From contig JANNGX010000021.1 of assembly GCA_031404115.1 (NCBI GenBank), forward strand, positions 1 to 59,762: DNA of 59,762 bases. The letters run 5' to 3'. This DNA comes from Gemmatimonadales bacterium. Lineage in GTDB: Bacteria; Gemmatimonadota; Gemmatimonadetes; Gemmatimonadales; GWC2-71-9. Every line of letters begins with the position of its first letter. Positions within the stretch are counted from its first letter, which is position 1. Under the pieces are notes generated by a model. It searched no databases, was not told the origin of the DNA, and was given only the letters and a program-made list of their open reading frames with translations. Shown piece after piece: positions 3,276-59,762 of the stretch. The position numbers were made by a program, and so were the translations under genes.

Positions 3276-3291
3276 GGGACTATAGTAACCC

Positions 3292-6127: not shown

Positions 6128-6129
6128 GG

Positions 6130-9088: not shown

Positions 9089-9098
9089 AGGTCGCTGG

Positions 9099-10523: not shown

Positions 10524-10556
10524 GCTCAAGTGTACACCGGGAGTAGATTCTCCGGC

Positions 10557-42458: not shown

Positions 42459-42505
42459 ACGCCAATGGTGACACCGGCTTGTCGGGACGCTACCTTCTTT
42501 TGGTC

Positions 42506-43534
42506 ATGGCCACCCCCACCCGCACCTCCCGCTACGGGTCCGCTCAGGCCCACCGGCCGGCCGCACCGCCTCAACCCTCCGCAACCTTCCCCCGGAACCC
42601 AGGCATGCCCCTGGACTTGGGCTGGATCGGGGACATCCGCATCAACCGGAGTGCGGTCGAGCGCCGGGCGGCCACCATCCCGACCCGTCGCACCGTCAAG
42701 ACCGCCTGGCAAGCGGGCTGGCTGCTCCGCGCCATATCCCTGATGGATCTGACCACGCTCTCGGGAGACGATACACCCGGGCGAGTCCTTCGGCTTTGCG
42801 CCAAGGCGCGCCGCCCGGTGCGCCAGGACGTGCTGGACGCGCTGGGCGCAGGAGACCTGGGTCTCACGGTGGCCGCGGTATGCGTCTATCACGCGTTCGT
42901 GGATACCGCGGTCAAAGCCCTCGACGGCAGCGGCATTCCCGTGGCCGCGGTGTCCACCGGATTTCCCGCCGGGCTGTCGCCGCTTCCGCTCCGGATTGCG
43001 GAAATCGAAGCCTCGGTGGCCGCGGGCGCCAAAGAGATCGACATCGTCATTACGCGCGCGCACGTCCTCACCGCCAAATGGACCGCGCTCTACGACGAGG
43101 TCAAGGCGTTCCGTGCCGCGGCCGGCCCCGCCCACCTCAAAGCGATCCTCGCCACTGGCGAGCTTGGCACGCTCCGGGAAGTGGCCAGGGCCAGCGTCGT
43201 GGCCATGATGGCGGGTGCTGATTTCATCAAGACGTCCACCGGCAAGGAAACCGTCAACGCGACGATGCCCTTCGGGATCGTGATGGCGCGCCAGATCCGC
43301 GAGTTCCGCGAGCGTACCGGCTTCTTCGTCGGGTTGAAGCCGGCCGGCGGCATCCGTACCGCCAAGCAGTCGCTCGACTGGCTGGCCATGATCAAGGAGG
43401 ATTTGGGGGACCGGTGGCTCCGGCCCGACCTCTTCCGCTTCGGCGCCAGCAGCTTGCTGACGGACATCGAGCGGCAGCTCGAGCACTACGCGACCGGGCG
43501 GTACTCCGCCGCCCACCGCCATCCCATGGCCTGA
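42506..43534 (+). CDS. deoC: Deoxyribose-phosphate aldolase (long form)
   Basis: AISLMDLTTLSGDDT, EIDIVI and the Schiff-base lysine motif ADFIKTSTGK. Start is ATG 42506 or ATG 42605. The track start 42377 overlaps the divergent amidase. Confidence 0.75.
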   Translation: MATPTRTSRYGSAQAHRPAAPPQPSATFPRNPGMPLDLGWIGDIRINRSAVERRAATIPTRRTVKTAWQAGWLLRAISLMDLTTLSGDDTPGRVLRLCAKARRPVRQDVLDALGAGDLGLTVAAVCVYHAFVDTAVKALDGSGIPVAAVSTGFPAGLSPLPLRIAEIEASVAAGAKEIDIVITRAHVLTAKWTALYDEVKAFRAAAGPAHLKAILATGELGTLREVARASVVAMMAGADFIKTSTGKETVNATMPFGIVMARQIREFRERTGFFVGLKPAGGIRTAKQSLDWLAMIKEDLGDRWLRPDLFRFGASSLLTDIERQLEHYATGRYSAAHRHPMA

Positions 43535-43535
43535 C

Positions 43536-45935
43536 ATGACGACGGTTCGCGAGTCCTTCGAATCAATGGCCTGGGGCCCGGCGCCGGAATCGGCCGCGAC
43601 CGCCGAGGCGTGGCTCGAGCAACACGGCAGGTCGTTGGGGAATTACATCGGTGGAGGTTGGACCGCCCCAGGGGCCGAGGGATTCGATACGATCAATCCG
43701 GCCGATGGCACGAGACTCGCGCGGGTGACCGCCGGGAGCACATCGGACGTCGACGCCGCAGTGGCCGCGGCGCGCGCGGCGCAAGCGGAGTGGTGGGCGC
43801 TGGGCGGACATGGCCGGGCCCGCTGGCTGTATGCGCTGGCGCGCCAGATTCAGCGCAACAGCCGGCTCTTTTCCGTCGTGGAGACTCTGGACAACGGCAA
43901 GCCGATCCGCGAGTCGCGCGACATCGATATTCCGCTGGTCGCGCGGCATTTCTACCATCATGCGGGCTGGGCCCAGCTCATGGACACCGAGCTCCCGGGG
44001 TACGGTCCGGTCGGCGTGGTGGGACAGATCATTCCCTGGAATTTTCCGCTGCTCATGCTGGCGTGGAAAATCGCGCCGGCGCTCGCGATGGGGAACACGG
44101 TGGTGCTCAAGCCGGCGGAGTTCACCTCGCTCACCGCGCTGCTCTTCGCGGACTGCTGCCATGCCATTGGATTGCCGCCCGGCGTCGTCAACATCATCAC
44201 CGGGGACGGCCGCACCGGTGCTGCGCTGGTGGACCATCCGGATGTGGACAAAATCGCCTTCACCGGCTCCACCGAAGTAGGGCGGATTATTCGCATCGCC
44301 ACGGCCGGCAGTGGCAAGAAGCTCTCGCTCGAGCTGGGCGGCAAATCGCCCTTCATCGTCTTCGAGGACGCCGATCTCGACAGTGTGGTCGAGGGCGTGG
44401 TGGACGCGATCTGGTTCAACCAGGGCCAGGTCTGCTGCGCCGGCTCCCGCATCCTGGCGCAGGAGAGCATCGCCACTCGACTGGTCGAGAAGCTCCGCGC
44501 CCGGATGGAGACGCTGCGAATCGGTAACCCGCTCGACAAGGCGGTGGACATCGGGGCCATCGTGGCGCCGGTGCAGCTCGAGATCATCCAGGGGCTGGTG
44601 CAGAAGGGCATCGACGAAGGCGCCACGTGCTGGCAGCCGAGCTGGAGCGTGCCCAAGGAAGGACTGTTTTATCCGCCGACGCTGTTCACCGACGTCACCC
44701 CCGCCGCGACGATTGCGCAGGTGGAGATCTTCGGGCCCGTCGTGGTGCTCATGACGTTCCGGACCCCGGCCGAGTCGGTCGAGATCGCCAACAACACCCG
44801 CTACGGCCTGGCCGCGAGCGTGTGGAGCGAGAATCTCAACACCGCCCTGGATATCGCCCCGCAGCTCAAGGCCGGCACCGTGTGGGTCAACTGCACCAAC
44901 ATGTTCGACGCGGCGAGCGGGTTCGGCGGATACCGGGAGTCGGGGTACGGACGGGAAGGCGGGAAAGAGGGGCTGTGGGAGTATGTGCGGCGGGAGGGCC
45001 ACCGGACGGACGGGACGGACAGCGTGGGCGGTGAGGGCGGGGGCTTTCCGTCCCCACTGTCCTCGCTGTCCGCCCCACCCTCGCTGTCCGCCCTCCCCGC
45101 CATCGATCGAACTGCGAAGCTCTACATCGGCGGCAAGCAAACCCGCCCCGACTCGGGCTACTCCATACCTATCCTCGACGCAGCCGGCGCGACGGTCGGC
45201 GACGTGGGCCGAGGGAACCGCAAGGACATCCGGAACGCGGTCGAGGCAGCCCACAAGGCCGAGGCGGGGTGGGGCACCGCGTCGGCGCACAACCGGGCCC
45301 AGGTGCTGTACTACATCGCGGAGAACCTCGCGATCCGGGAGCGGGAGTTCGTCGACCGCCTGTCCTCACTGTCCTCACCGTCCTCCCTGGCGGAGGTCGC
45401 GGCCGCCATCCAGCGCGCCTTTGCCTACGCCGCGTGGGCCGACAAGTATGATGGACGGGTCCACTCCACACCGTTCCGCAATGTCACGCTGGCCATGAAC
45501 GAGCCGATCGGGGTGATGGGGCTCATCGCGCCTGCCGAGGCCCCGCTGCTCGGCTTCCTTTCGCTGGTGCTCCCGGCGGTCGCCATGGGCAACTGCGTCG
45601 TCGCGGTTCCATCGGAGCGGTGGCCCCTGCTCGCCACCGATCTGTATCAGGTGCTGGACACGTCCGATGTTCCGGGGGGCGTGATCAACATCGTGACCGG
45701 AAGCCGCAAGGAGCTGGCCCCGGTGCTGGCGGCGCACGACGACGTGGATGCCGTCTGGTTCTACGGACCGCGCGAAGAAGCAGCCGAGGTGGAGAAGCTC
45801 TCGGCTGGCAACATGAAGCGGTGCAAAGTTGAGTGGAGCAAGACAAACTGGCTGGACCGCCGCGAGGCCGAGGGCGAAGAGTTCCTCCGCGAAGCCACGC
45901 AGGTCAAGAACATCTGGGTGCCCTACGGCGCCTGA
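43536..45935 (+). CDS. Aldehyde dehydrogenase fused to a second, catalytically truncated ALDH-like domain
   Basis: First ~480 aa are a complete ALDH: WNFPLLMLAWKIAPALAMGNTVVLKPAE, catalytic ELGGKSP and QGQVCCAGSR. A low-complexity linker follows (DGTDSVGGEGGGFPSPLSSLSAPPSLSALP). Then comes a ~290-aa ALDH-like NAD-binding portion with no Cys/Glu catalytic motifs. The ATG lies 1 nt after the deoC stop. Confidence 0.75.
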   Translation: MTTVRESFESMAWGPAPESAATAEAWLEQHGRSLGNYIGGGWTAPGAEGFDTINPADGTRLARVTAGSTSDVDAAVAAARAAQAEWWALGGHGRARWLYALARQIQRNSRLFSVVETLDNGKPIRESRDIDIPLVARHFYHHAGWAQLMDTELPGYGPVGVVGQIIPWNFPLLMLAWKIAPALAMGNTVVLKPAEFTSLTALLFADCCHAIGLPPGVVNIITGDGRTGAALVDHPDVDKIAFTGSTEVGRIIRIATAGSGKKLSLELGGKSPFIVFEDADLDSVVEGVVDAIWFNQGQVCCAGSRILAQESIATRLVEKLRARMETLRIGNPLDKAVDIGAIVAPVQLEIIQGLVQKGIDEGATCWQPSWSVPKEGLFYPPTLFTDVTPAATIAQVEIFGPVVVLMTFRTPAESVEIANNTRYGLAASVWSENLNTALDIAPQLKAGTVWVNCTNMFDAASGFGGYRESGYGREGGKEGLWEYVRREGHRTDGTDSVGGEGGGFPSPLSSLSAPPSLSALPAIDRTAKLYIGGKQTRPDSGYSIPILDAAGATVGDVGRGNRKDIRNAVEAAHKAEAGWGTASAHNRAQVLYYIAENLAIREREFVDRLSSLSSPSSLAEVAAAIQRAFAYAAWADKYDGRVHSTPFRNVTLAMNEPIGVMGLIAPAEAPLLGFLSLVLPAVAMGNCVVAVPSERWPLLATDLYQVLDTSDVPGGVINIVTGSRKELAPVLAAHDDVDAVWFYGPREEAAEVEKLSAGNMKRCKVEWSKTNWLDRREAEGEEFLREATQVKNIWVPYGA

Positions 45936-48894
45936 GACTCCCCAGGACCCAACGCCCAAGCGCGCCCGGCCGGAAACATCCCCTACCAGGCGGGATGGAC
46001 GGCCGGCGCGGCGGCAGTCTTCACTGCTCCGACTGAGCGCCGCAATCGCTTCGGCTCAGACTGAGTCGGAGGTCTGCCTGGCCGTCGTGGATGGCCTGCA
46101 CGATGAGGCCCTCGGCTACGATTTTCTTGGGCTCTTCCTGCTCGACCCCGCCAGTGGCGACCGGGTGCTTCATGCCAGCGTCGGCTGGGCCGACATTCCC
46201 ATCCACATGCGGGTCCCTCCGGGCCAGGGCTTGAGCGACCGGCCCACTCGGGATCGCCTGCTCCGCTACACCGCCGATGTAACTCGAGAGGAGGGGTACG
46301 TCTCCAGTCTCAACAGCGGCTCCGAAGTGGACGTGCCGCTGCTCACCGGGAACGACGTGCTCGGAGTCCTGGTGGTCGAGAGCCGGGAACGGGGCGCGTT
46401 CGGTCCGGCAGACTTCGAGATTCTCACCGCGGCGGCGCAACACGCGAGTATCGCGATTGCCCGAGTCCGGCTGCTCGAGGAACAGCGGCGGCTCGTCGCC
46501 GAGGAACGCCGCCGGGCCGACGAACGGGAGGCGTTGCTCGCCACCATTACCGATCTCTCGTCCGAACTCGAGCTCTCCCGCCTGCTCCACGCCGTCCTGG
46601 CTCGGGCGGTGACGCTTTTGGGCTCCGCGGGAGGCGAGCTGGCCATTCACGACGAGGCGAAGGGCGACCTGGTCATCGCCGCGAACCACAACATGCGAGA
46701 GAGCTCCATTGGTACCCGGCTCAGGCTGGGGGAAGGCGCGATGGGACGCGTGGTACAGACCGGCGAGCAGATGATCATTCCCGACTACCAGGCCTGGGCG
46801 GGGCGTTCCGGCCAGTATGCCGCGATCGATGCCCATGCCGTCGTGGTGGCACCCTTGCTCATCGGCGGCCGACCAGTGGGGGCGATCAACGTCTGGCACG
46901 AGGACCCGTCCCGGAGCTTCGCCGCCGCCGACCAGCAGCTCCTCAGCCTCTTCGGCCAGCAGGCGGCCATCGCCCTCGAGAATGCCCGGCTGTACACCGC
47001 GGCGCAGCGGGAGCGCAGCTACTTCGAGGTGCTGGTCCGGAATAGCCCGGTGGCGATCGTGGCGCTCGACCTCGAACACAGAATCCTCTCCTGCAACCCG
47101 GCCTTCGAACGCCTGTACGGGTACCGCCAGACCGAGGTGGTCGGGCGGGACCTCGACGAGCTGATCACCACGTCGGAAACGCGGTCCGAGGCGGTGGGAT
47201 ACAGCCGTCAGGCCCTCGATGATCAGCCGGTGCAGGTGATCACCAAGCGACGCCGCAAGGATGGGAGTCTCGTGGACGTTGAGGTCCTTGCCGTGCCGGT
47301 GGTCATCGGGGGAGAACGCATTGGCCTGATGGGCCTCTATCACGACGTGACCGAGCTGCTCGCCGCGCGCAAGGCGTCGGAGGCGGCCAATCACGCCAAG
47401 AGCCAGTTCCTGGCCAGCATGAGTCACGAGCTGCGCACCCCGCTCAACGCTATCATCGGCTACAGCGAGATGCTCGAGGAAGAGGCCGCCGAGCGGGGTC
47501 ACGACAGCTACGTCCCCGATCTCCAGAAGATCCGATCCGCGGGGCGGCATCTGCTCGCTCTGATCAACGATGTGCTCGATCTTTCCAAGATCGAGGCCGG
47601 CAAGATGGAGCTGCATCTCGAGACGTTCGAGCTTCGGCCCGCCATCGACGCCGTCGCCGCGACCGTGGCACCACTCATCGAGAAGAACAACAACACGCTC
47701 GCGCTGGACCTCGCCGCCACCATCGGCGTCATGCGCGCCGATGTCACCCGGGTCCGGCAGGTGCTGTTCAACCTCCTGTCCAATGCCAGCAAGTTCACCG
47801 AGCACGGCACCATCACCCTGCGCGCACACCGGGAATCGGGAGTCGCGGGCGATACCATCCTCCTGACCGTGGAGGACACCGGGATCGGCATGACGCCGGA
47901 GCAGCTCGGTCGCCTCTTCCAGGCATTTTCCCAGGCCGAGGCCTCGACCGCGAGCAAATACGGTGGCACCGGGCTGGGGCTTGCAATCAGCCGCAAGATC
48001 TGCGAGATGATGGGCGGCGAGATTACCGTGGCCAGCACGCCAGGACAGGGAACCGCCTTTACCGTGCGGCTGCCGGCCGAGGTCCGCGAGCCGGGCGAGC
48101 CGGTCCTCCCCGTGCCTCTCAGGCCGGCTGGCGGGGCGGGAACGGTGCTGGTGATCGACGACGATCCCGCGGCGCGGCAGCTGGTGGCCCGGATGCTGAA
48201 CAAGGATGGGTTCCGGGTGCTCGAAGCCGCGAACGGCCGGGAGGGCCTTCGCCTGGCAGGTACGGAACGACCCGATGTGATCACCCTTGACGTGCTCATG
48301 CCGGAGCTCGATGGATGGGGTGTGCTGTCGGCGCTCAAGAGCGATCCGCTGCTGGCCTCGATCCCGGTGGTCATGCTCACGATCACCGACCAGCGCAATC
48401 TGGGATTCTCGCTCGGGGCTACCGAGTATCTGACCAAACCGATCGAACGGGCCCAGCTTTCCGCGGTGCTCGCGCGCTATCGTCGCCCGGCGGGAGCAAG
48501 CGTCCTCCTCGTCGAGGACGATCCCGCGACGCGCGCCGTGTTGCGCCGCTCGCTGGAAAAGGAAGGCTGGCGGGTGACCGAGGCCGAGAACGGCCGGGTT
48601 GGCCTCGAGCGGGTCGCGACGGACCGCCCCGCGCTGGTGCTCCTCGACCTGATGATGCCCGAGATGGACGGCTTTCAGTTTCTCGAGGGCCTGCGCTCGT
48701 GGAAGCCGGCGGACGCCCCGGCCGTCGTGGTCATTACCGCCAAGGACCTGACCGACGACGATCGGCGGCGACTCAACGGCGCGGTGCGCGACGTGGTGCA
48801 GAAAGGATCGCAGGAAATCGACTTGCTGCTCGAGGACGTCCGCCTCCGGGTTACCGCCCACCTCCGCCGTTCCGTCCTGGATATCCCCGCGTGA
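45829..48894 (+). CDS. Soluble hybrid sensor histidine kinase 1 (GAF-GAF-PAS-HisKA-HATPase_c-REC-REC)
   Basis: H-box [16 protein letters not shown] (His codon 47425-47427), N-box [26 protein letters not shown]. Two receivers (VLVIDDD...TLDVLMP...TKP and LLVEDD...LLDLMMP...QKG). No TM segments. The start is uncertain, see findings: the only canonical in-frame start upstream of the conserved N-terminus is TTG 45829. Confidence 0.8.
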   Translation: MSGARQTGWTAARPRAKSSSAKPRRSRTSGCPTAPETPQDPTPKRARPETSPTRRDGRPARRQSSLLRLSAAIASAQTESEVCLAVVDGLHDEALGYDFLGLFLLDPASGDRVLHASVGWADIPIHMRVPPGQGLSDRPTRDRLLRYTADVTREEGYVSSLNSGSEVDVPLLTGNDVLGVLVVESRERGAFGPADFEILTAAAQHASIAIARVRLLEEQRRLVAEERRRADEREALLATITDLSSELELSRLLHAVLARAVTLLGSAGGELAIHDEAKGDLVIAANHNMRESSIGTRLRLGEGAMGRVVQTGEQMIIPDYQAWAGRSGQYAAIDAHAVVVAPLLIGGRPVGAINVWHEDPSRSFAAADQQLLSLFGQQAAIALENARLYTAAQRERSYFEVLVRNSPVAIVALDLEHRILSCNPAFERLYGYRQTEVVGRDLDELITTSETRSEAVGYSRQALDDQPVQVITKRRRKDGSLVDVEVLAVPVVIGGERIGLMGLYHDVTELLAARKASEAANHAKSQFLASMSHELRTPLNAIIGYSEMLEEEAAERGHDSYVPDLQKIRSAGRHLLALINDVLDLSKIEAGKMELHLETFELRPAIDAVAATVAPLIEKNNNTLALDLAATIGVMRADVTRVRQVLFNLLSNASKFTEHGTITLRAHRESGVAGDTILLTVEDTGIGMTPEQLGRLFQAFSQAEASTASKYGGTGLGLAISRKICEMMGGEITVASTPGQGTAFTVRLPAEVREPGEPVLPVPLRPAGGAGTVLVIDDDPAARQLVARMLNKDGFRVLEAANGREGLRLAGTERPDVITLDVLMPELDGWGVLSALKSDPLLASIPVVMLTITDQRNLGFSLGATEYLTKPIERAQLSAVLARYRRPAGASVLLVEDDPATRAVLRRSLEKEGWRVTEAENGRVGLERVATDRPALVLLDLMMPEMDGFQFLEGLRSWKPADAPAVVVITAKDLTDDDRRRLNGAVRDVVQKGSQEIDLLLEDVRLRVTAHLRRSVLDIPA

Positions 48895-51800
48895 CGCCGG
48901 CTGGCACCGAGCCATCCCACGACCGTCATCGAGAGGCGGCGCTCCTGCGATTGAGCACCGGCATCGCGGCCGCGGAGACCGAACGGGACATCAGCCAGGC
49001 CGTCGTCGTTGGGCTGCAGGACGTGGCGCTCGGGTTCGATTTCGTCGCGGTACTGCTGGTAGACTCCGAGACCGGCGACCGGGTGGTGATCGCGAGCCGC
49101 GGCTGGGAGGGCGCGCCGCCCGGGCTCCGGGTCCGGCCCGGCCAGGGGCTGAGCGAGCTGCCCCTGCTCGACGGGCGGCTCCACTACACGCCCCAGGTCA
49201 CCCACGACACCCGCTATCTCCCGACCCGCAACGAGGGGTCGGAGGTGGACGTGCCCCTCCTCATCAACAAGCAGCTCGTTGGGGTACTCGTGGTGGAAAG
49301 CAACCGGCACCACGGGTTCGGGACGGACGACTTCGAGGTGCTTCGAGCCGCGGCTAATCAGGCCGGAATTGCCATTGGCCGGGCCCGACTGCTGGCCGCT
49401 GAGCGACGCCGCGCCGACGAGCAGGAAGCGCTCCGGGCGACAATGGCAGACCTTTCCGCCCGGCTGGAGCTCCCCGATCTGCTGCAGGCCGTGCTCGAAC
49501 GGGCCATCCAGCTCCTCCGGGTGAGCCATGGCGAGCTCGCGATCTACGACTCCGAACGCGAGCAGCTCGAGATCGTCGCGAGCTACAACCTCGGCAGGAA
49601 GGACACCACCGGCACCCGCATGCGAGTCGGGGAGGGTGCGATGGGGCACGTCGCCCTGACGCGCGAGCCGTTCATTATTCCCGATTACCAGGCCTGGGCC
49701 TCGCGCTCCGAGCAGTACTCGCAGTCCGCCTTTCACGCGGTCATGGTCGCCCCGCTTCTCATGGGGCGGCAACTCGTGGGTGCCATCGCCTTCATGGACC
49801 AGAACGAGGCGCGCCGGTTCGGCCCGGACGATCTCCGCCTCCTCGATCTGTTCGTCCCCCAGGCCGCCGTCGCCATCGAGAACGCCCGGCTTTTCACGGT
49901 CGAGCATCGCCGAGCCGAGGAACAACAGGCGCTGCTCGACACGATGAAGGATCTGGCCGGCCAGCTCGAGCTCTCCAAGGTGCTGCAGCGGGTGCTGGAA
50001 CGCGCGGTCGCGCTGCTCACGGTCACCGGGGGCGAGCTCGCCACCTGGGACACCGAGTCCGGGGACCTGGTCATCGTCGCCAGCCACGACATGGGCACCG
50101 ACGCGGTCGGCACCCGGATCGCGCTGGGCGACGGCGCCATGGGGCGCGTGGCCGAGACCCGCGAGTCCCTCATCATTCCGCGCTACCAGGAGTGGGATGG
50201 ACGCTCCTCCAAATACACCCAGAGCACCGTGCAGTCGGTGATGGCCGCGCCGCTGCTCATCGGAAACCGGCTGGTGGGTACCATCGCCAGCGTCCATTCC
50301 GATCCGGGCCGCGAGTTCGGAGCGGAGGATCTGCGGTTGCTCGAGCTATTCGCGCCAGAGGCGGCCATCGCCATCGAGAACGCGCGGCTGTTCACCCAGG
50401 CCCAGCACCAGCAGCAATACTTCGGCGAGCTGGTTGCCAACAGCCCGGTCGCTATTGTCACGCTCGACACCAGCCACATCGTGACCTCGTGCAACCCGGC
50501 CTTCCTGGCGCTCTACGGCTACAACGAGCCGGAAGTTCTCGGCCAGCACCTCGACGACCTGATCACCACCGAGGAGACCCGGGCCCAGGCGGTGCAGTAC
50601 ACCGCGCAAGCGCTCGACCACCGGCCGGTGCGCGCCATCGCACAGCGTCGCCGCAAGGATGGGAGCCTGGTGGACGTGGAGGTGCTGGGAGTGCCCGTGG
50701 TCGTGGAGGGCACGCTGGTCGGCATGATGGGCCTGTATCATGACATCACGGAGCTGCTGAAGGCGCGGCGGGAAGCGGAGCTGGCCAATACCGCCAAGAG
50801 CCAGTTCCTGGCGAGCATGAGCCACGAGCTGCGTACCCCCCTGAACGCCATCATCGGGTACAGCGAGCTGCTCGAAGAGGACGCCGTCGAACGGGGGCAG
50901 CCCGACTCGGTGGCCGATTTGCAGAAGATCCGCGCCGCGGGCCGCCATCTGCTCGCGCTGATCAACGACGTGCTCGATCTGTCCAAGATCGAGGCGGGCA
51001 AGATGGAGCTCCACCTCGAGACCTTCGCGCTTGGCCCCGCCATCGAGGCCGTGGCGGCGACCGTCGCCCCGCTCATCGAGAAGAACGGCAATGCACTCCG
51101 GCTCGAGCTTGCCGACGGGCTTGGCGCGATGCGAGCCGACGTGACCCGGGTTCGCCAGGTGCTGTTCAACCTGCTGTCCAATGCGAGCAAGTTCACCGAG
51201 CGCGGCACCATCACCCTCGCCGCGTACCGGGAGCCGGCGGCCGGCGGCGACACCATCCGCATCACCGTCCGGGACACCGGGATCGGCATGACCCCGGAGC
51301 AGCTCGGCCGGCTCTTTCAGGCGTTCTCTCAGGCCGAGGCATCCACCTCCAGCAAGTATGGCGGGACCGGCCTCGGACTCGCCATCAGCCGCATGTTCTG
51401 CGAAATGATGGGCGGCGACATCGCCGTGGCCAGCGCGCCGGGTGAGGGCACAGCGTTCACCGTCCGGCTTCCCGCCGAGGTGCGCGAGCCGCACGATGCC
51501 GCGAGCGCGCCGGCAGCCCCCGGCGAGCACAGCGGCGCCGGCACCGTGCTCGTGGTCGATGACGACCCCGCCGCGCGCGACTTGCTGGCGCGGATGCTTG
51601 GCAAGGAAGGCTTCCGGGTCCTGCAAGCGGCCAACGGCGAGGACGGCATCCGCCTCGCTCGAGCGGAGCACCCCGATGTGATCACGCTCGATGTGCTCAT
51701 GCCGGGACTCGATGGCTGGGGCGTGCTCGCCGCCCTCAAGGACGACCCCGCGCTCGCGGCCATTCCGGTGGTGATGCTTACCGTGACCGACGAGCGCACC

Positions 51801-52280
51801 CTGGGCTTCGCGCTGGGCGCGACGGAGTACCTGACCAAGCCGATCGAGCGCGCCCGGCTATCCGCGGTGCTGGCGCGCTACCGTCGCGCCCCGGGTTCCG
51901 GGGTCCTGATTGTGGAAGACGACGCCGACACCCGCGCGGTGCTGCGTCGCTCGCTGGAAAAAGAAGGGTGGCGCGTGACGGAGGCGGAGAACGGGCGGGT
52001 GGGGCTCGAGCGAGTCCACGCGGAACAGCCCTCCCTGGTTCTGCTCGATCTCATGATGCCGGAAATGGACGGCTTCGAATTTCTCGATGGGCTCCGGGCC
52101 GGGTCCGCCGCCGGCGCACCCGATGTGATTGTCATCACCGCGAAGGAGCTGACCGAGGACGATCGGCGGCGACTGAGCGGAGGGGTTTCGCGTGTGTTGC
52201 AGAAGGGTGGGCAGCGCGGCGAGGACCTCGTCGCCGAGGTCCGTCATTGCGTGGCGGCGCGGGCCGGTGGGCGCCGATGA
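48891..52280 (+). CDS. Soluble hybrid sensor histidine kinase 2 (GAF-GAF-GAF-PAS-HisKA-HATPase_c-REC-REC)
   Basis: The GTG at 48891 overlaps the HK1 stop (GTGA). His codon 50823-50825 lies in [16 protein letters not shown]. Same motifs as HK1, plus one extra ~168-aa GAF module. Track ORF 48315..52280 is trimmed. Confidence 0.8.
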
Positions 52281-55159
52281 CCCGGAAATCGAATGGTCAC
52301 GCCGCCCGCCGGCAGGCCGCGCTGCTCCGGCTCTCGGCCGAAATCGCCGCGGCGCCCGATGAGGGAGAGGTCTGCCGCGCAGTCGTCAACGGGCTTCGCG
52401 ACCCGGCCCTCGGGTATGTCTTTCTGGGATTGTTTCTGCTGGATGACGCCACCGGCGATCGGGTGCTCCAGGCCAGCGTGGGATGGCCCGACGCTCCGAC
52501 CGGTTGGCGGGTCCACCCCGGACAAGGACTGAGCGAGCGTCCGCTGCAGGACGGCAAGCTGCACTACACCCCCGATGTCACCCGCGAGGCGGGCTACCTC
52601 CCCAGCCTGAACAGCGGCTCCGAAGTGGATGTGCCGCTCGTGATGGGGAAGACGGTGTTCGGCGTGCTCGTGGTGGAGAGCACCGAGCCGGACGCCTTCA
52701 CCGGAAACGATCTCGAGATTCTCACCGCGGCCGCTACGCAGGCCAGCATCGCGATCGGGCGAGCGCGCTCCCTCGCCGCGGAGCGACGGCGCGCCGACGA
52801 GCAGCAGGCGCTTCTCGATACCCTGGCCGATCTCTCGGGCGAGCTCGAACTCAGCAAGCTGCTCCAGGCGGTGCTTCGGCGGGCTACCACCCTCCTCGGC
52901 GTGAGCGGCGGCGAGCTCGCGATCTACGATGAGGTGCATAAGGAGCTCGAGATCGTCGCCAGCCTGCATATCGGGGTGGACTCCACCGGGACCCGCCTTG
53001 GTCTCGGCGAGGGAGCGATGGGCCACGTGGCGACGACCCAGGAGCCGATCTGCATTGCGGAATACCAGGAATGGCTGGGCCGGTCGGGGAAGTATTCCGG
53101 CGTCGAGGTCCACTCGGTCATGGCGGCGCCGCTGCTCATCGGGCACCGCCTGGTGGGCGCGTTTGCCTGCGTTCACGATGATCCTGCCCGGAAGTTCGGC
53201 CCCGACGATTTGCGCCTGCTCAACTTGTTCGCACCCCAGGCCGCGGTCGCCATCGAGAACGCGCGGCTGTACACCGCCGCCCAGCGACAGAAACAGTATT
53301 TCGAGGAGCTCGTCCTCAACAGTCCCGTGGCGATCGTCACACTCGATACCCGGCACGACATCGTCTCGTGCAATCCGGCGTTCGAGCAGCTGTACGGGTA
53401 CGAGCAGGACGAGGTCACCGGGCGTAACCTCGACGAGCTCATCTCGACGGCCACCACGCGCTCGGAAGCGGTGGCCATCACGCAGCACGTCCTCCAGGAA
53501 GGCGCCATGCGGAGCATCGGCCGCCGCCGGCGCAAGGACGGTACGCTGGTGGATGTGGAAGTCCTCGGGGTGCCGGTCCTGGTGGAGGGCAAGCTGGTGG
53601 GACTGATGGGGCTCTACCACGACATCACCGAGCTCGCGCGCGCGCGGCAGGCGGCCGAAGCCGCCAACAGCGCGAAGAGCCAGTTCCTCGCGAACATGAG
53701 TCACGAGCTTCGCACGCCGCTCAACGCCATCATCGGGTACAGCGAGATGCTCGAGGAGGAAGTCGCCGACATCGGGCACACCGAGCTGGCGCCCGATCTC
53801 CGCAAGATCCGCTCGGCGGGGCGGCACCTCCTGGCCCTGATCAACGACATCCTCGACCTCTCCAAGATCGAGGCCGGCAAAACGGAACTCTTCCTCGAGG
53901 ACTTCGAGATCGGTGCCATGGTGGAGGACGTCGCCACGACGATCCGGCCGCTGGTGGAGAAGAACGCCAACCGGCTGGTCGTCCGCGTGGAGGCGGCCGG
54001 CACGATGCGCGGCGACCTTACCAAGGTCCGCCAGATGCTGCTCAATCTGCTCTCGAATGCGTGCAAATTCGCCGACCACGGAACGATCACGCTGGACATC
54101 GTGCGCGGCCCTGGCGCAGAGGGGGCGGAAGAGATTCGCTTTGTGGTGTCGGACTCGGGCATCGGCATGACGCCGGCGCAGACGGCGCGGCTCTTCGAGG
54201 CGTTCTCCCAGGCCGAAACGTCCACCAGCAAGAAGTACGGAGGAACCGGGCTCGGCCTCGCCATCACGCGACAGTTTGCCCGGATGATGGGGGGAGACGT
54301 GACCGTGGAGAGCGAGCCGGGCCGGGGCTCCAGCTTCACCATCCGGCTCCCGGCAACCACCGCGGCGCCGGCGGAAGCGGGTGAAGGCGCGGAGGGCTCC
54401 GGCCGCGCCGGGACGGTGCTGGTCATCGACGACAGCGTGCAGGCCCGCGAGCTCATCCGGCGCTTCCTGGTCGATGACGGTTTCCGGGTCGTGGAAGCCG
54501 CGAGCGGCGAAGCGGGCCTCGAGCTGGCGCGCCGGGAGCCACCCGACGCCATCACCCTCGACGTCCTCATGCCCGGCATGGATGGGTGGGCAGTACTCGC
54601 GGCGCTCAAGGCCGACCCGTTGCTCGCCGGCATTCCGGTGATCATGCTGACGATGCTTGACGACCGGAGTCTCGGGCTGGCGCTCGGCGCCACCGATTTC
54701 ATGACCAAGCCCATCGATCGGGAGCGACTCCGCGCTTTGCTCGCGCGCTACCGGCGGAACGGTTCGGGCGATGTGCTCGTGGTCGAGGACGATCCCGGCA
54801 CCCGGGAGCTGCTGCGCCGCCAATTGGAAGCGGACGGGTGGTCGGTCACCGAGGCGGAGAACGGCAGGGCGGGGCTCGCCGCCGTCGAGCGCACCATGCC
54901 GTCGCTCATCCTCCTCGACCTCATGATGCCGGTCATGGATGGATGCCAGTTTGCCGCGGAGCTCCGGAAACGGGAAGCATGGCGTGGGATCCCGGTCATC
55001 GTCATTACCGCGAAAGATCTGACGTCGGAAGATCGCCGCGCGCTCAACGGAGATGTGCAGGGCGTCCTGCAGAAGGGTGCCTTCGGTCGCGAGGAGCTGT
55101 TGCGCGAGATTCACCACCTGATGGGCCCGGCGGTCGCCGGGCCCCAGCACGGGAGGTAG
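52277..55159 (+). CDS. Soluble hybrid sensor histidine kinase 3 (GAF-GAF-PAS-HisKA-HATPase_c-REC-REC)
   Basis: The ATG at 52277 overlaps the HK2 stop (ATGA). His codon 53702-53704 lies in [42 protein letters not shown], and two receivers. Confidence 0.85.
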
Positions 55160-55162
55160 CGT

Positions 55163-55534
55163 ATGCCGAAGATTCTCCTGGTGGAAGACAATGAGATGAA
55201 TCGCGACATGCTTTCGCGTCGCCTGCAGCGGAAGGGGTTCGAGGTCGTGCTTGCGGTGGATGGCCTGCAGGGCGTGGCCATGGCGACGGCCGGCGGGTAC
55301 GACCTCATCCTGATGGACATGAGCCTCCCCGAGCTCGACGGCTGGGAGGCCACCCGCCGCGTGCGGGAAGCCGAAACCGGACCCCGGGTGCCGATCATCG
55401 CGTTGACCGCCCACGCGATGTCAGGCGACCGTGAGAAGGCCATGGCCGCCGGCTGCGACGACTACGACACCAAGCCGGTGGAGCTGGAACGGCTGCTCGG
55501 GAAGATTCAAGCCCTGCTTGGGAAGCAGGCATGA
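55163..55534 (+). CDS. Single-domain CheY-like response regulator
   Basis: MPKILLVEDNEMNRDML...DLILMDMSLPELDG...IIALTAHAM...YDTKP. GGGAGG lies upstream, inside the end of HK3. The ATG lies 3 nt after the HK3 stop. Confidence 0.9.
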   Translation: MPKILLVEDNEMNRDMLSRRLQRKGFEVVLAVDGLQGVAMATAGGYDLILMDMSLPELDGWEATRRVREAETGPRVPIIALTAHAMSGDREKAMAAGCDDYDTKPVELERLLGKIQALLGKQA

Positions 55535-57444
55535 CCGGGCTCACCACGCCCGAGGCCGTCGCCGAGCTCCGCCACGAGCTACGTACGCCGCTCAACCTCA
55601 TTATCGGCTACTGCGAGATGCTGCTCGAGGATGCGACCGACGCCGGGCAGCGCGGCGCGCTGGAACAAACCCTCGCGGCGGGCCGCGATGTCCTCGAGCG
55701 GATCAACGCGTCGGTCCCGCCGTCGCGGGGGGAAATCAGCGAAGCGGACTTTGCCGCGCTCCGCCACGCCCTGCGGGAGCCGCAGGGGCGCATCGTCATC
55801 GCGACCACCGCGCTGCTCGCCGCGGACCCGATCGATCCCCAGTTCGAGCGGGATGTGCGGCGGATTCGCAGCTCGGCCGAGCGGCTGCTCACCGTCGAGC
55901 TCCCGTCCGGCCGAAGCGCGAATCATGTGGCCGTGACCGTCGAGCATCCGGCGGCGGGTGCCGTCGCAGTCCCGCCGGTGCAGCCGGCGCACATCCTCGT
56001 GGTGGACGACCAGGAAGACAACCGGGCCGTGCTGGAGCGGCGGCTTCGACGTCAGGGCCACACCATTGAATCCGCCTCGGGCGGCCTTTCCGCGCTCGAG
56101 ATGCTGGGGCGGGAGCGGTTCGATCTCGTGCTGCTCGATGTGCTCATGCCCGATCTCGACGGCCTGGCCGTCCTCGAACGGATAAACGCCGACCAGAACA
56201 CCCGCGACATCCCGGTCATCATGATTTCGGCGCTCGACGACGTCGGCAGCGTCGTGCGCTGCATCGAGCGGGGGGCCGAGGACCATCTGTCCAAGCCGTT
56301 CGATCCGGTGCTGCTCCGGGCCCGAATCGGCGCCTGCCTCGAGAAGAAGCGGCTCCGCGACGTCGAGCTCGAGTACCTCCGCGAGGTCGGGCGAGTCATC
56401 CAGGCGGCCACCGCGGTCGAGGCGGGGAGTTACCAGCAGGGCGCGCTCGCCCAGGTGGCGCAGCGGGGCGACGAGCTCGGGCGGCTGGCCCGGGTGTTCG
56501 ACGGCATGGCCAATCAGGTACGGGCCCGCGAGGACCGGCTCAAGGAGCAGGTCGTGGCCCTGCGGCGGGAGATTGGCGAGGCGAGACAGACCACCCGCCA
56601 GTCCGTACCGCACGGGGTACTCAGCCTGCTCACCGGTGAGCTCTTCGCCGGGAGATTCGAGGTCCTCGAGGAAATCGGCAGCGGCGGCATGGGCATGGTC
56701 TACCGCGCGCTCGACCGTGAACTGGGCGACCAGGTTGCCATCAAGACCCTCCGTCCCGAGCTGCTGCAGGACCCCACGCTGCTGGAGCGGTTCAAGTCCG
56801 AGATCCGCCTGGCCCGGCACATCTCGAGCAAGCATGTCGTCCGGACCCACGACATCGGGGAGCGCGACGGCGTCTACTATTTGACGATGGAGTACGTCGA
56901 GGGCATCACGGTCCGGGAGCTGCTCGATACCCGCGGGCGACTTGGCACCGCGCCGACCCTTGCCATCGCGAGCCAGCTGGCCCAGTCGCTGGTGGCCGCC
57001 CATGAACAGGGAGTCATTCACCGGGACATCAAGCCGCAGAACCTCCTCCTCGATGGGGCCGGCGTGCTCAAGGTGATGGACTTCGGCGTGGCGCGCCTGG
57101 CCGGGGGGAACGCCAACCTCACCGAGGCGGGCATGGTGGTGGGCACGCCGTCGTACATGGCGCCGGAGCAGATGCTGGGAGAGAGCGTCGACGAGCGGAC
57201 CGATCTGTATGCGGTGGGGGTGGTGCTCTTCGAGTGCCTCCTGGGACGGCTGCCCTTCGAGGCCGGGTCCGCCATCGCGCTGATCGCAAGGGTATTGCGC
57301 GATCAGCCTCCCGTGCCCGCGGCGCTCGATCCGGAGATCCCGCCCGCGCTCTCCGAGCTGGTGGTGCGGCTCCTTGCGAAGGATCCGGCGCAGCGGCCCG
57401 CGAATGCCACCGAGCTGGCGCGGCTCCTCTCCGATCTCTCCTGA
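55531..57444 (+). CDS. Fusion protein: ATPase-less H-box (DHp/HisKA-like) region + receiver + HAMP-like helix + Hanks Ser/Thr kinase
   Basis: The ATG overlaps the RR stop (ATGA 55531-55534). aa 12-30: [19 protein letters not shown] (His15, codon 55573-55575). aa 154-272 is REC: VVDDQED, LLDVLMPDLDG with Asp203 (codon 56137-56139), and SKP. aa ~313-345: DELGRLARVFDGMANQVRAREDRL. aa 376-637 is the kinase: GSGGMGMVY, VAIKTL, HRDIKPQNLLL, DFGVARL, GTPSYMAPEQ. I see no N/G1/G2 ATP-lid motifs. Confidence 0.85.
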   Translation: MTGLTTPEAVAELRHELRTPLNLIIGYCEMLLEDATDAGQRGALEQTLAAGRDVLERINASVPPSRGEISEADFAALRHALREPQGRIVIATTALLAADPIDPQFERDVRRIRSSAERLLTVELPSGRSANHVAVTVEHPAAGAVAVPPVQPAHILVVDDQEDNRAVLERRLRRQGHTIESASGGLSALEMLGRERFDLVLLDVLMPDLDGLAVLERINADQNTRDIPVIMISALDDVGSVVRCIERGAEDHLSKPFDPVLLRARIGACLEKKRLRDVELEYLREVGRVIQAATAVEAGSYQQGALAQVAQRGDELGRLARVFDGMANQVRAREDRLKEQVVALRREIGEARQTTRQSVPHGVLSLLTGELFAGRFEVLEEIGSGGMGMVYRALDRELGDQVAIKTLRPELLQDPTLLERFKSEIRLARHISSKHVVRTHDIGERDGVYYLTMEYVEGITVRELLDTRGRLGTAPTLAIASQLAQSLVAAHEQGVIHRDIKPQNLLLDGAGVLKVMDFGVARLAGGNANLTEAGMVVGTPSYMAPEQMLGESVDERTDLYAVGVVLFECLLGRLPFEAGSAIALIARVLRDQPPVPAALDPEIPPALSELVVRLLAKDPAQRPANATELARLLSDLS

Positions 57445-57603: not shown

Positions 57604-59762
57604 ATGGTGCATAGCACCGCACGATTCTTCCGCACCCTCCCCATTCCAGTCCCCTTGCGAGCCGCAACCGGGACATTAGCGCTTGTCCTCGTCAGTTTCC
57701 TTGCGACCTGCAAGCAGAATGATCTGACCGGCCCGCTCGCCACGGGTCCGGCTGCGAAGCTCACGATCACGACCCAGCCCTCGGCCTCGGCGGCGAGCGG
57801 GGTCGGGTTTGCCCAGCAGCCGGTAATCCAGCTCCAGGACGCGGCGGGCAAGCCGGTCAATCAGGTGGGCGTGGTGCTGACGGCCGCGATCGCCACGGGC
57901 GGCGGTACGCTGGGCGGCACGCTCACGGCGACCACCAACGCCAGTGGGGCGGCGACCTTCTTCGATCTATCCATTACCGGCACGGCGGGCGATCGAACCC
58001 TGAACTTCTTGGCGCCGGCGCTGGCGGGCGCAACTTCGAATACGATCGCCATCAGCGTCGGTGCGGCCACCAGCCTTACGATCACCACCCAGCCTTCGGC
58101 CTTGGCCGCGAGTGGTGTCCTTCTGAATCAGCAGCCGGTGCTCCAGCTGCTCGACGCGGCCGGGAACGCCGTGAACCAGGCGGGCGTGGGCGTTACCGCA
58201 ACCATCGCCTCGGGCGGTGGCACGCTGGGCGGAACGACGACCGTGCTGACGAATGCCGCTGGCGTGGCGACCTTCACGGACCTGTCGATTAACGGCGTCA
58301 TCGGGGATCGGCTGTTGAACTTCAGCGCCACCTCGCTCATCGGCGTCACCTCGAGCACGATCACCCTCTCCCCGGGGGCAGCGACCCAGCTCACGATCAC
58401 CACCCAGCCCTCGGCCTCGGCGGCGAGTGGGGTCGGGTTCGCCCTGCAGCCGGTGCTCCAGCTGCGCGACGCTGCGGGCAACGCGGTCAGCCAGCTGGGC
58501 CATACCGTGACGGCGGTGATCGCTACCGGTGGGGGCACCCTGAACGGGGCGACCAGCGTGGTGACGAATGCCAGCGGCGTAGCGACCTTCGCCGGCCTCT
58601 CCATTACCGGGACGATCGGCGATCGCACCCTCAGCTTCGGCGTCCCGTTACTGACCGGGGCGACTTCCAGCACGATCACCCTCACGCCCGGCGCAGCCAC
58701 CCAACTCACGATCACGACCCAGCCCTCAAGCTCGGCCGCCAGCGGTGTCGTCTTGCCCCAACAGCCGGTGCTCCAGCTGCGGGACGCCGCCGGCAATGCG
58801 GTCAGCCAGTTGGGGACCGTGGTAACAGCCGCGATCGCCACCGGCGTCGGCACGCTGGGCGGCACGCTCACGGCGAGCACCAACGCCAGCGGCGTGGCGG
58901 CCTTCACCAGCCTGACCATCACCGGTAGCACCGGGAGCCGGACCCTGAATTTCAGCGCCCCGGCAGTGGCGGGGGCCACCTCAGGTACGATCACCATCAC
59001 GGCGGGCGGAGCCACCCAGCTGACGCTCACGACCCAGCCTTCGGCCTCGGCAGCGAGTAGCGCCGTCTTTGCCCAACAGCCGGTGCTCCAACTCCGGGAC
59101 GCGGCGGGGAACGCCGTGAACCAGGCGGGCGTCGGCGTTACCGCCACCATCGCCACGGGCGGCGGGACGCTCGGCGGCACGCTGATAGCCACCACGAACG
59201 CCGCTGGGGTAGCGACCTTCACGGACCTGTCGATGACCGGCGACATCTCGAATCGGACGCTGAGCTTCAGTGCAACCGGGGCCACCGGTGTCACCTCGGG
59301 CGCTGTCAACATCACGCCGGGCGCGGCGACCCAAGTCACGATCATCACCCAGCCCTCGGCCTCGGCGGCGAGCGGGGTCGGGTTCGCCCAGCAGCCGGTG
59401 CTCCAGCTGCGCGACGCTGCGGGCAACGCGGTCAGCGTGGCAGGCCATACCGTGACGGCGGTGATCGCGACCGGCGGGGGCACGCTGGGAGGGGCGACCA
59501 GCGTGGTGACGAATGCCAGCGGTGTGGCGACCTTCGGTGGTCTCTCCATTGCCGGCACGATCGGCGATCGCACCCTCAGCTTCAGCGTCCCGTCGCTGAC
59601 CGGGGCGACTTCCACTACGATCACCATCGCGCCTGGCGCAGCCACCCAGCTCACGATCACCAGTCAGCCTTCAAGCGCGGCAGCAAGCGGTGTCGTCCTG
59701 CCCCAACAGCCCGTGCTCCAGTTGCGGGACGCCGCCGGCAATGCGGTCAGCCAGTTGGGGAC
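57604..59762 (+). CDS. Lipoprotein with tandem 105-aa bacterial Ig-like (Big_1/invasin-like) repeats, 3' end beyond window
   Basis: I hand-translated all 719 codons from ATG 57604 and found no stop. The N-terminus is MVHSTARFFRTLPIPVPLRAATGTLALVLVSFLATC (lipobox LATC). At least 7 repeats follow, of the form LTITTQPSASAASGV..QQPVLQLRDAAGNAV...TA.IATGGGTLGG....TNASGVATF..LSITG..GDRTL.F. It is absent from the ORF track because it has no stop in the window. Confidence 0.8.
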   Translation, partial: MVHSTARFFRTLPIPVPLRAATGTLALVLVSFLATCKQNDLTGPLATGPAAKLTITTQPSASAASGVGFAQQPVIQLQDAAGKPVNQVGVVLTAAIATGGGTLGGTLTATTNASGAATFFDLSITGTAGDRTLNFLAPALAGATSNTIAISVGAATSLTITTQPSALAASGVLLNQQPVLQLLDAAGNAVNQAGVGVTATIASGGGTLGGTTTVLTNAAGVATFTDLSINGVIGDRLLNFSATSLIGVTSSTITLSPGAATQLTITTQPSASAASGVGFALQPVLQLRDAAGNAVSQLGHTVTAVIATGGGTLNGATSVVTNASGVATFAGLSITGTIGDRTLSFGVPLLTGATSSTITLTPGAATQLTITTQPSSSAASGVVLPQQPVLQLRDAAGNAVSQLGTVVTAAIATGVGTLGGTLTASTNASGVAAFTSLTITGSTGSRTLNFSAPAVAGATSGTITITAGGATQLTLTTQPSASAASSAVFAQQPVLQLRDAAGNAVNQAGVGVTATIATGGGTLGGTLIATTNAAGVATFTDLSMTGDISNRTLSFSATGATGVTSGAVNITPGAATQVTIITQPSASAASGVGFAQQPVLQLRDAAGNAVSVAGHTVTAVIATGGGTLGGATSVVTNASGVATFGGLSIAGTIGDRTLSFSVPSLTGATSTTITIAPGAATQLTITSQPSSAAASGVVLPQQPVLQLRDAAGNAVSQLG
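57760..59762 (+). repeat. In-frame tandem repeat, unit 315 nt, with 945-nt (three-unit) higher-order periodicity
   Basis: Unit starts (CTCACGATCAC-like) fall at 57760, 58075, 58390, 58705, 59020, 59335 and 59650, exactly 315 nt apart. Units 3 and 6, and units 4 and 7, are near-identical at nucleotide level. Units 2 and 5 share AGVGVTATIA. Units 1, 4 and 7 share VV.TAAIATG. Confidence 0.9.

Follow-up and report, generated by a model that had tools for sequence, protein, structure and literature searches.

A conserved five-gene cassette in Gemmatimonadota: a candidate multi-input phosphorelay with a Hanks-type kinase output

Several kinds of multistep phosphorelay are known. The sporulation phosphorelay of Bacillus subtilis is built from KinA-E, Spo0F, Spo0B, and Spo0A, and in yeast the Sln1-Ypd1-Ssk1 relay controls the mitogen-activated protein kinase kinase kinases Ssk2/22. 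Receiver-controlled enzymes are represented by the cyanobacterial cyclase CyaC, and the Bacillus cereus protein RsbY is a receiver-PP2C regulator; known cross talk between two-component systems and Hanks-type kinases in bacteria runs mostly from kinase to regulator, the kinase phosphorylating a response regulator. In the experimentally demonstrated relay Pak-SdrG-PhyT-PhyR, several kinases are followed by a single-domain response regulator, an ATPase-less histidine phosphotransferase, and a terminal response regulator (PMC5898713). For the CckA-ChpT-CtrA relay (PMC9981736, PMC3433190), receivers have been split into intermediary and terminal classes. Further points of contact with Ser/Thr phosphorylation are B. 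cereus RsbK (PMC4574943) and fusions of Ser/Thr kinases with histidine kinases, such as the Spirulina hybrid HK-STYK (PMC1183210) and fungal CHK1 (PMC9069115), and a survey from 2006 never saw the signaling helix upstream of a eukaryote-type Ser/Thr kinase (PMC1592074). The subject of this report is a cassette of five genes at positions 45829 to 57444 of a 59,762-nucleotide stretch of DNA from a Gemmatimonadales bacterium (contig JANNGX010000021.1 of assembly GCA_031404115.1, positions 1 to 59,762, forward strand; hereafter, the window), which has a G+C content of ~68% and has metagenome-assembled Gemmatimonadota genomes as its nearest relatives. Judged from sequence, the chances appear about even that this cassette is a conserved multi-input His-Asp-His-Asp phosphorelay with a terminal receiver fused to a Hanks-type kinase, in which the phosphoryl group would pass from a kinase His to Asp52 of a single-domain receiver and then to His15 and Asp203 of the terminal protein.

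The block consists of five open reading frames (ORFs), all on the forward strand, with junctions of −4, −4, +3, and −4 nt, from which all five genes are taken to be translationally coupled. The first gene, for HK1 (45829 to 48894), encodes a cytoplasmic hybrid histidine kinase with the Pfam architecture GAFx2-PAS-HisKA-HATPase_c-REC-REC and has an uncertain TTG start; the second, for HK2 (48891 to 52280), starts with GTG, overlaps the HK1 gene by 4 nt, and encodes a paralogous hybrid kinase with an extra GAF domain (GAFx3-PAS-HisKA-HATPase_c-REC-REC); and the third, for HK3 (52277 to 55159), starts with ATG, overlaps the HK2 gene by 4 nt, and encodes another paralogue, GAFx2-PAS-HisKA-HATPase_c-REC-REC. 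These are followed by the genes for RR (55163 to 55534), a receiver of 123 aa in which Pfam found REC only, and STK (55531 to 57444), a terminal protein of 637 aa with a tandem DHp module, a receiver, a HAMP-like linker, and a Hanks-type Ser/Thr kinase domain; its Pfam layout is HisKA(9-59)-REC(155-266)-HAMP(284-331)-Pkinase(376-624). The H-box histidines of the kinases are His533 of HK1 (47425 to 47427), His645 of HK2 (50823 to 50825), and His476 of HK3 (53702 to 53704), and the receiver aspartates are Asp821 (48289 to 48291) and Asp940 (48646 to 48648) of HK1, Asp934 (51690 to 51692) and Asp1053 (52047 to 52049) of HK2, Asp762 (54560 to 54562) and Asp881 (54917 to 54919) of HK3, Asp52 of RR (55316 to 55318), and Asp203 of STK (56137 to 56139). 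An initial annotation, made from the sequence of the window, had described five co-directional genes with these junctions, three GAF/PAS sensors carrying two receivers each and followed by a lone receiver, and 4 H-box histidines and 8 receiver aspartates, including His15 and Asp203; ORF coordinates, Pfam architectures, and the located residues agree with this description in full. It had also seen the Ser/Thr kinase as the only evident output, and the Pfam scan of the five proteins, which returned no DNA-binding or cyclase domain, bears this out. Neither HK1-3 nor the rest of the block contains a hydrophobic stretch resembling a membrane span. Scans for promoter and terminator consensus sequences gave counts equal to the shuffled expectation and were uninformative on the transcription unit. 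Downstream of the block, a spacer of 159 nt precedes an unrelated, repeat-rich lipoprotein gene.

The layout has its closest counterpart in the B. subtilis relay, in which several kinases likewise lead to a single-domain receiver, followed by a His phosphotransferase that is a four-helix bundle without an ATPase and by a terminal receiver with an output; the smallest of the related cassettes described below (L016 and L022), with one kinase, RR, and a DHp-REC-output protein, are laid out like Spo0F/Spo0B/Spo0A, except that the final two parts form one protein. In the cassette, however, one polypeptide comprises the His module and the terminal regulator, this module has two hairpins per chain where that of B. 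subtilis is a homodimer with an alpha/beta domain, a Ser/Thr kinase takes the place of a DNA-binding output domain, and the window kinases are hybrids with two receivers. The relays Pak-SdrG-PhyT-PhyR and CckA-ChpT-CtrA share with the cassette multiple kinases that lead to an intermediary receiver, then a kinase-derived His phosphotransferase without kinase activity, and then a terminal regulator, but PhyT and ChpT each exist as a dimeric protein of their own and have retained a CA-like domain, of which the cassette module has no remnant (residues 120-150 are predicted to be disordered), and the outputs of these relays are anti-anti-sigma or DNA-binding. The yeast relay resembles the cassette as a His-Asp-His-Asp relay that ends in the control of a Ser/Thr kinase; there, the regulator binds the kinase noncovalently and the carrier is a true HPt protein, whereas the cassette has one polypeptide with a DHp-derived carrier. 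RsbK/RsbY and the fusions of histidine kinases with Ser/Thr kinases also couple two-component and Ser/Thr phospho-signaling in one protein or operon, but RsbY is a phosphatase, not a kinase, and the fusions carry the kinase domain within the sensor kinase protein, not downstream of a receiver. There are precedents for multistep relays, for His carriers lacking an ATPase, and for enzymes under receiver control; the novelty lies in a kinase as the output, in a tandem-DHp carrier that is fused to the regulator and has lost one His in a complementary manner, and in the recognition of a cassette that spans phyla and can exchange its output. The literature searched, which did not extend to response-regulator censuses, held no description of this cassette or of a receiver-fused Hanks kinase, and the bare REC-kinase architecture may have been listed earlier in such censuses. 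To our knowledge, signaling in Gemmatimonadota has not been studied. The cassette looks like a built-in link between the two main phospho-signaling systems of bacteria, and, because its receiver lies upstream of the kinase domain in one polypeptide, it offers a defined, compact system for phospho-aspartate switching of a eukaryote-like kinase.

STK has more than 120 full-length relatives at ≥71% identity (counted as 90%-identity clusters), all with the same domain set; the named ones are Gemmatimonadota, and their public names are generic, such as “protein kinase,” “CheY-like chemotaxis protein,” and “DNA-binding response OmpR family regulator.” On four long contigs, a gene for a receiver of 121 to 126 aa lies 5′ of the STK gene, overlapping it by 4 nt or abutting it, and is itself preceded by 1 to at least 3 GAF/PAS kinase genes, while the genes outside differ from contig to contig. 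A synteny scan with one genome per GTDB species returned 80 loci, none of them from a cultured Gemmatimonas, and domains were mapped on all 80 with hidden Markov models built from the window's own domains. About 30 of the 80 loci contained a full-length STK relative (53 to 91% identity), almost all being labeled Gemmatimonadota, with 2 Acidobacteriota metagenome-assembled genomes (MAGs) among them. In every locus with enough upstream DNA, the order was [1-4 x GAF/PAS kinase]-[single REC]-[DHp-REC-linker-kinase], and the flanking genes were unrelated. The cassette order therefore recurs in ~30 Gemmatimonadota species genomes instead of being absent from relatives, the outcome that the initial annotation had named as a sign of chance juxtaposition, and the cassette is common in soil Gemmatimonadota. 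Its composition varies at the kinase end: the kinase adjoining RR has no receivers in 13 of the 28 STK-type cassettes, and only nonhybrid kinases were present in the retrieved DNA of L016, L022, and L026. In a search of 1.84 billion 50%-identity representatives, the best 150 matches were dominated by multi-kinase proteins, and among the matches listed there were ~8 clusters with the full DHp-REC-(linker)-kinase arrangement and a few more that were partial or started at the receiver (~10 in total).

Some variants stood apart from this pattern. L020 and L025, from MAGs labeled Acidobacteriota (Vicinamibacterales and Solibacteraceae, respectively), carry full-length kinase-type cassettes that reflect either horizontal transfer or misbinning. 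L054 (positions 2000 to 12000; Gemmatimonadales) contains a second, far more divergent copy of the cassette (33% identity) with many short ORFs, which is either a decaying paralogue or a product of poor assembly. An STK-TPR gene is often found just outside related cassettes, upstream in L001, L004, and L011 and downstream in L006, L013, L018, L019, and L027; such neighbors may be functionally linked to the cassette or may merely mirror the abundance of these kinases.

The three kinases of the window are paralogues with 60 to 67% identity, and each has the H-box His, the HATPase_c domain, and the C-terminal receivers with Asp that define a hybrid sensor histidine kinase (HisKA, 74 to 77 bits against a Pfam cutoff of 26.9; HATPase_c, 104 to 112 bits against a cutoff of 26.4). 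Alignment to CheY showed the acid pocket, phospho-acceptor Asp, T/S, and Lys to be intact in all eight receivers of the block; the alpha4 region is shortened in kinase REC1, and in kinase REC2 neither the aromatic switch residue nor the K-P pair is present. RR (Response_reg, 92.7 bits) has the E/D, D52, T, Y, and K-P residues of a CheY-like single-domain regulator, and its best library matches were intermediary receivers of hybrid kinases, e.g., BarA, RcsC, and TorS; STK, RR, and HK3, the proteins tested against NCBIfam, reached the curated cutoff of no family. Both RR and the six kinase-borne receivers, which belong to orthologous groups separate from that of the terminal receiver, are candidates for the intermediary receiver (D1). 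RR was found in 49 of the 49 cassettes having upstream DNA (46 by an automatic rule and 3 by inspection). Because RR is never absent and is the best conserved receiver class of the cassette, and because the kinase receivers are often missing, these comparisons point to RR as an obligate intermediate. The initial annotation had instead drawn the flow from the kinase His to the kinase REC and then to His15 and Asp203, with RR as a sink or shuttle; its last two stations, both invariant, were retained, and its path through the kinase receivers is not the best supported one.

The N-terminal part of STK contains two helical hairpins. Hairpin 1 (residues 7-61; 55549 to 55713) has a canonical H-box with the invariant His15 (55573 to 55575) and is not followed by an ATPase (CA) domain, and hairpin 2 (residues 71-119; 55741 to 55887) is a degenerate repeat of hairpin 1, in which R82, P84, and Q85 are invariant. 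Hairpin 2 holds a fifth, H-box-like motif, LRHALREPQ (His79), of which the His is not conserved. With an invariant H-box His and no HATPase_c domain, STK has the marks of an ATPase-less second His carrier. In the full-length AlphaFold model (pLDDT, 74; moderate), four N-terminal helices and a disordered segment (residues 124-150) precede the receiver, after which two long helices, separated by a connector, lead to the kinase domain. Residues 1-128 modeled alone gave a pLDDT of 93.6 and a pTM of 0.85, with helices at residues 7-34, 38-61, 71-96, and 103-119, and the two hairpins are predicted to form a single-chain four-helix bundle. The ATPase-less DHp of the initial annotation is thus upheld in its invariant His15 and its missing ATPase, but it is not an ordinary dimerizing DHp, as the tandem hairpins are predicted to make up the bundle within one chain. 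A Spo0B/ChpT-type build was considered and rejected, since there is no CA-like remnant, residues 124-150 are predicted to run disordered straight into the receiver, and each chain has two hairpins. Membership in the HPt domain family was also rejected, there being neither a Pfam Hpt match nor a specific fold match, and the module may function like an HPt domain.

The origin and conservation of the two hairpins became clearer across the wider family. In an Anaerolineae relative, both hairpins are clear HisKA matches; in L038, both retain the H-box His; and in 5 alphaproteobacterial cyclase-type members, the His of hairpin 1 is replaced by Gln and a canonical KLRHDLRTPINAIKGY box is found in hairpin 2. 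The duplication of the hairpin is deduced from such relatives, where HisKA is clearly matched by each of the two hairpins or by hairpin 2 only. The H-box His was present in hairpin 1 in 49 of 53 family members, hairpin 2 being degenerate outside the exceptions just named, and at least one H-box His, in either hairpin, was kept in all 53. That at least one His is always kept, and in either position, is what would be predicted of a pseudo-dimeric bundle with a phosphotransfer or phosphatase site and not of a mere scaffold. The H-box helices are almost invariant across loci, and beyond the His, the module and the kinases have nearly the same H-box helix sequence, a likeness compatible with both docking the same receiver. 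We tentatively propose, at somewhat less than an even chance, that the N-terminal module represents an undescribed histidine phosphotransfer class, a single-chain pseudo-dimer derived by duplication of a DHp hairpin, of which each lineage would have kept one His, and that with RR it would form a portable relay head, placed on a cyclase, a kinase, or no enzymatic output and yielding in Gemmatimonadota a His-Asp relay that ends in a Hanks-type kinase. The tandem-DHp module may be an unrecognized route for the evolution of HPt-like carriers.

The terminal receiver of STK (residues 154-258; 55990 to 56304) has invariant residues Asp159/160, Ser233, and Lys255 in addition to the invariant Asp203. 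Its last helix is continuous with a helical, HAMP-like linker (residues 259-353; 56305 to 56589), which was modeled by AF2, with moderate confidence only, as a helix at residues 259-298, a connector, and a second long helix at residues 315-353. The linker scored 20.5 bits as HAMP against a Pfam cutoff of 25; the scores were 25.3 in L025 and 26.7 in L037, and HAMP is listed for some STK orthologues. In the DHp-REC-HAMP-Hanks kinase architecture originally assigned to this protein, HisKA with His15, REC with Asp203, and the kinase domain were confirmed, but the HAMP domain is borderline. The PknB-like Hanks kinase domain (residues 376-636; 56656 to 57438; Pkinase, 175.6 bits against a cutoff of 31.7) has a GSGGMG loop, VAIK Lys405, H497-R498-D499 with HRD Asp499, N504, D517-F518-G519 with DFG Asp517, and APE, that is, the motifs of a PknB-like Ser/Thr kinase. 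These motifs are invariant in 20 orthologues except for part of the Gly loop and the Ala of APE, and Thr531 and Thr539 of the activation loop are both invariant. The domain is PknB/PrkC/StkP-like, and its closest solved structures were the Staphylococcus aureus kinase entries 9ymt and 4eqm, StkP, and PknB (E values of ~1e-54 to 1e-52). The kinase substrates are not encoded in the block, and no further conserved neighbor was seen around the cassettes of relatives.

Further loci from the same scan match only STK residues ~8-323, which cover the DHp module, the receiver, and part of the linker, and come from Rokubacteria/Methylomirabilota, Verrucomicrobia, alpha-, beta-, gamma-, and deltaproteobacteria, and Anaerolineae. 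Their genes are arranged as [multi-GAF kinase, usually with REC-REC]-[single REC]-[DHp x1-2-REC-X]. Among 10 such terminal proteins analyzed with Pfam, 8 were HisKA-REC-Guanylate_cyc, and a cyanobacterial one was REC-Guanylate_cyc without HisKA; cassettes with a cyclase output occur in Rokubacteria/Methylomirabilota, Verrucomicrobia, and alpha- and gammaproteobacteria. The terminal proteins of L037 and L038, one from a deltaproteobacterial and one from an Anaerolineae MAG, stop after the HAMP region and have no enzymatic output. The HisKA-REC-cyclase cassettes have the same gene order as the Gemmatimonadota cassette, with an orthologous RR, terminal receiver, kinase REC1 and REC2, and tandem DHp, but their output is Guanylate_cyc, and the HAMP-like linker of the kinase-type proteins was not detected in the cyclase-type ones. 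Between the kinase and cyclase types, identity was 68% for RR, 63% for the terminal REC, 56% for kinase REC1, and 46% for kinase REC2, as against ≤38% between different receiver classes; these values within and between classes indicate four old orthologous groups that were kept across the change of output. The Gemmatimonadota cassette accordingly reads as an output swap, from nucleotide cyclase to kinase, on an ancient relay head, and the cassette family as a natural output-swap experiment in which one relay head is found with a cyclase, a kinase, or no output.

Neighboring genes and a kinase variant were also observed in these loci. In L037 (11240 to 13124), a gene for a ParA/MinD-like ATPase follows that of the DHp-REC-HAMP protein and a gene for a cNMP-binding transporter adjoins, and in L038 (11206 to 15834), an NB-ARC/TPR STAND NTPase gene and then a ParA/MinD-like ATPase gene follow. 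The cassette kinases of Rokubacteria/Methylomirabilia (L043, 3072 to 10595; L044, 2509 to 9954) are ~2,500 aa long and have 11 to 12 tandem GAF domains before HisKA.

In the favored model, each of HK1, HK2, and HK3 would detect a ligand or state inside the cell and undergo autophosphorylation, at His533, His645, and His476, respectively. The phosphoryl group would be transferred to Asp52 of RR, serving as a common hub like Spo0F or SdrG (a D1 shuttle), from there to His15 on the ATPase-less tandem-DHp module, in the role of Spo0B, ChpT, PhyT, or an HPt domain, and then to Asp203 of the adjoining terminal receiver. Acting via the continuous helix and the HAMP-like linker, phospho-Asp203 would change how the PknB-like kinase domains are placed within a dimer, and this repositioning would switch activation-loop autophosphorylation (Thr531/Thr539) and the phosphorylation of substrates encoded outside the block. 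From the general behavior of PknB-type kinases and of receiver-coiled-coil regulators, we infer that the autophosphorylation switched in this way would occur in trans. The receiver pairs fused to the kinases would be accessory, as internal sinks, gates, or parallel entries to His15. The hard-wired bridge between two-component and Hanks-type signaling suggested by the initial annotation fits all of the sequence evidence, including the invariance of His15, Asp203, and the kinase catalytic residues, although its mechanism is a prediction.

Several observations weigh against this model and against the proposed class of the module. Every transfer step is deduced from sequence, and the switch could either activate or inhibit the kinase. 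A Foldseek search of the N-terminal model against the PDB gave a generic fold match and no HPt- or DHp-specific one: the nearest structures were single-chain up-down four-helix bundles with TM-scores of 0.5 to 0.59 and E values of ≥0.02, which are not significant, and one of them was a ROP dimer re-engineered as a single chain. Within Gemmatimonadota alone, the similarity of hairpins 1 and 2 is weak (BLASTP E = 8e-4; hhalign E = 0.015). The H-box of the module also holds HExxT, the HisKA phosphatase motif, and His15 could serve dephosphorylation rather than transfer. RR has the complete CheY-type switch set (T, Y, and K-P) and, instead of being a passive shuttle, could act as a phosphate sink or as an allosteric output, a concept developed elsewhere (PMC9981736). 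Finally, all three window kinases are hybrids, so that the classical route from a hybrid-kinase REC to a His module is equally available to them.

This last route, in which the phosphoryl group would pass from the kinase His to the kinase's own REC1 or REC2 and then to His15 and Asp203 while RR is only a sink or side branch, draws on the two intact receivers of each window kinase and on the age and conservation of the REC-REC tail (56% for REC1 and 46% for REC2 across output types). The short alpha4 of REC1 and the absence of the aromatic switch residue and K-P pair from REC2 are also compatible with nonallosteric intermediaries or sinks (PMC9981736). Yet the kinase next to RR lacks receivers in 13 of the 28 STK-type cassettes, the retrieved DNA of three cassettes has them on no kinase at all, and an RR that is never missing, is the most conserved receiver, and is translationally coupled would be left without a necessary role; we regard this route as rather improbable. 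An ordinary two-component logic, with the kinases phosphorylating Asp203 (and RR) directly, the His module acting as a phosphatase/reset device or scaffold, and RR acting as a competing phosphate sink, is likewise unlikely. It is in keeping with the minimal cassettes, where direct transfer is possible between the nonhybrid kinase and the terminal protein that, with RR, are their only components, with the HExxT motif beside His15, and with PhyT being both a phosphotransferase and a negative regulator (PMC5898713). A purely structural role, however, does not account for the constant retention of one canonical H-box His next to a degenerate hairpin, whichever of the two hairpins that is, and such a logic leaves unexplained why RR shows the highest conservation of all receivers. 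The window encodes two more Hanks kinases, both unrelated, which show that signaling genes are common in this genome, as a chance juxtaposition of independent genes in a signaling-rich genome would have it, but the recurrence of the order in ~30 Gemmatimonadota species genomes, the homologous cassette in other phyla, the unrelated flanks, and the 4-nt overlaps refute this explanation, which we consider scarcely credible. The route that we favor is transfer through RR Asp52 to His15 and Asp203.

The start of HK1 is uncertain. TTG at 45829 is the sole in-frame ATG/GTG/TTG codon upstream of the conserved N-terminus, and an HK1 gene that starts there shares 107 nt (45829 to 45935) with the end of the aldehyde dehydrogenase gene upstream of it. 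The HK1 orthologues of L001 and L003 have an ATG start just before the conserved ARRQSALLRLS, a motif that lies ~60 codons past the TTG in the window, and HK1 may have a noncanonical start or a long overlap. L007, a relative with 91% identity, has the same HK1 layout and likewise lacks a canonical start near the conserved N-terminus, and more distant orthologues have an ATG near it.

Upstream of the cassette, window positions 42377 to 45935 hold a deoC-like aldolase gene and, 1 nt beyond it, a gene for a protein of 799 aa with two aldehyde dehydrogenase matches, apparently a fused double aldehyde dehydrogenase. These genes are co-directional with the cassette and were rejected as members of the unit, as they are not conserved alongside it in relatives. 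Downstream, a forward-strand gene (57604 to 59762) that runs past the end of the window encodes a lipoprotein-like N-terminus and many near-identical repeats of ~100 aa (TITTQPSASAASGV...QQPVLQLRDAAGNAV), with weak Pfam matches to Ig-like or invasin-type domains; a long antisense ORF at 58128 to 59660 is probably an artifact of the repeats. Of the two other Hanks kinases of the window, both encoded on the reverse strand (17422 to 19704 and 24313 to 26979) and unrelated to the cassette kinase, one carries TPR repeats and the other PD40/TolB-like repeats.

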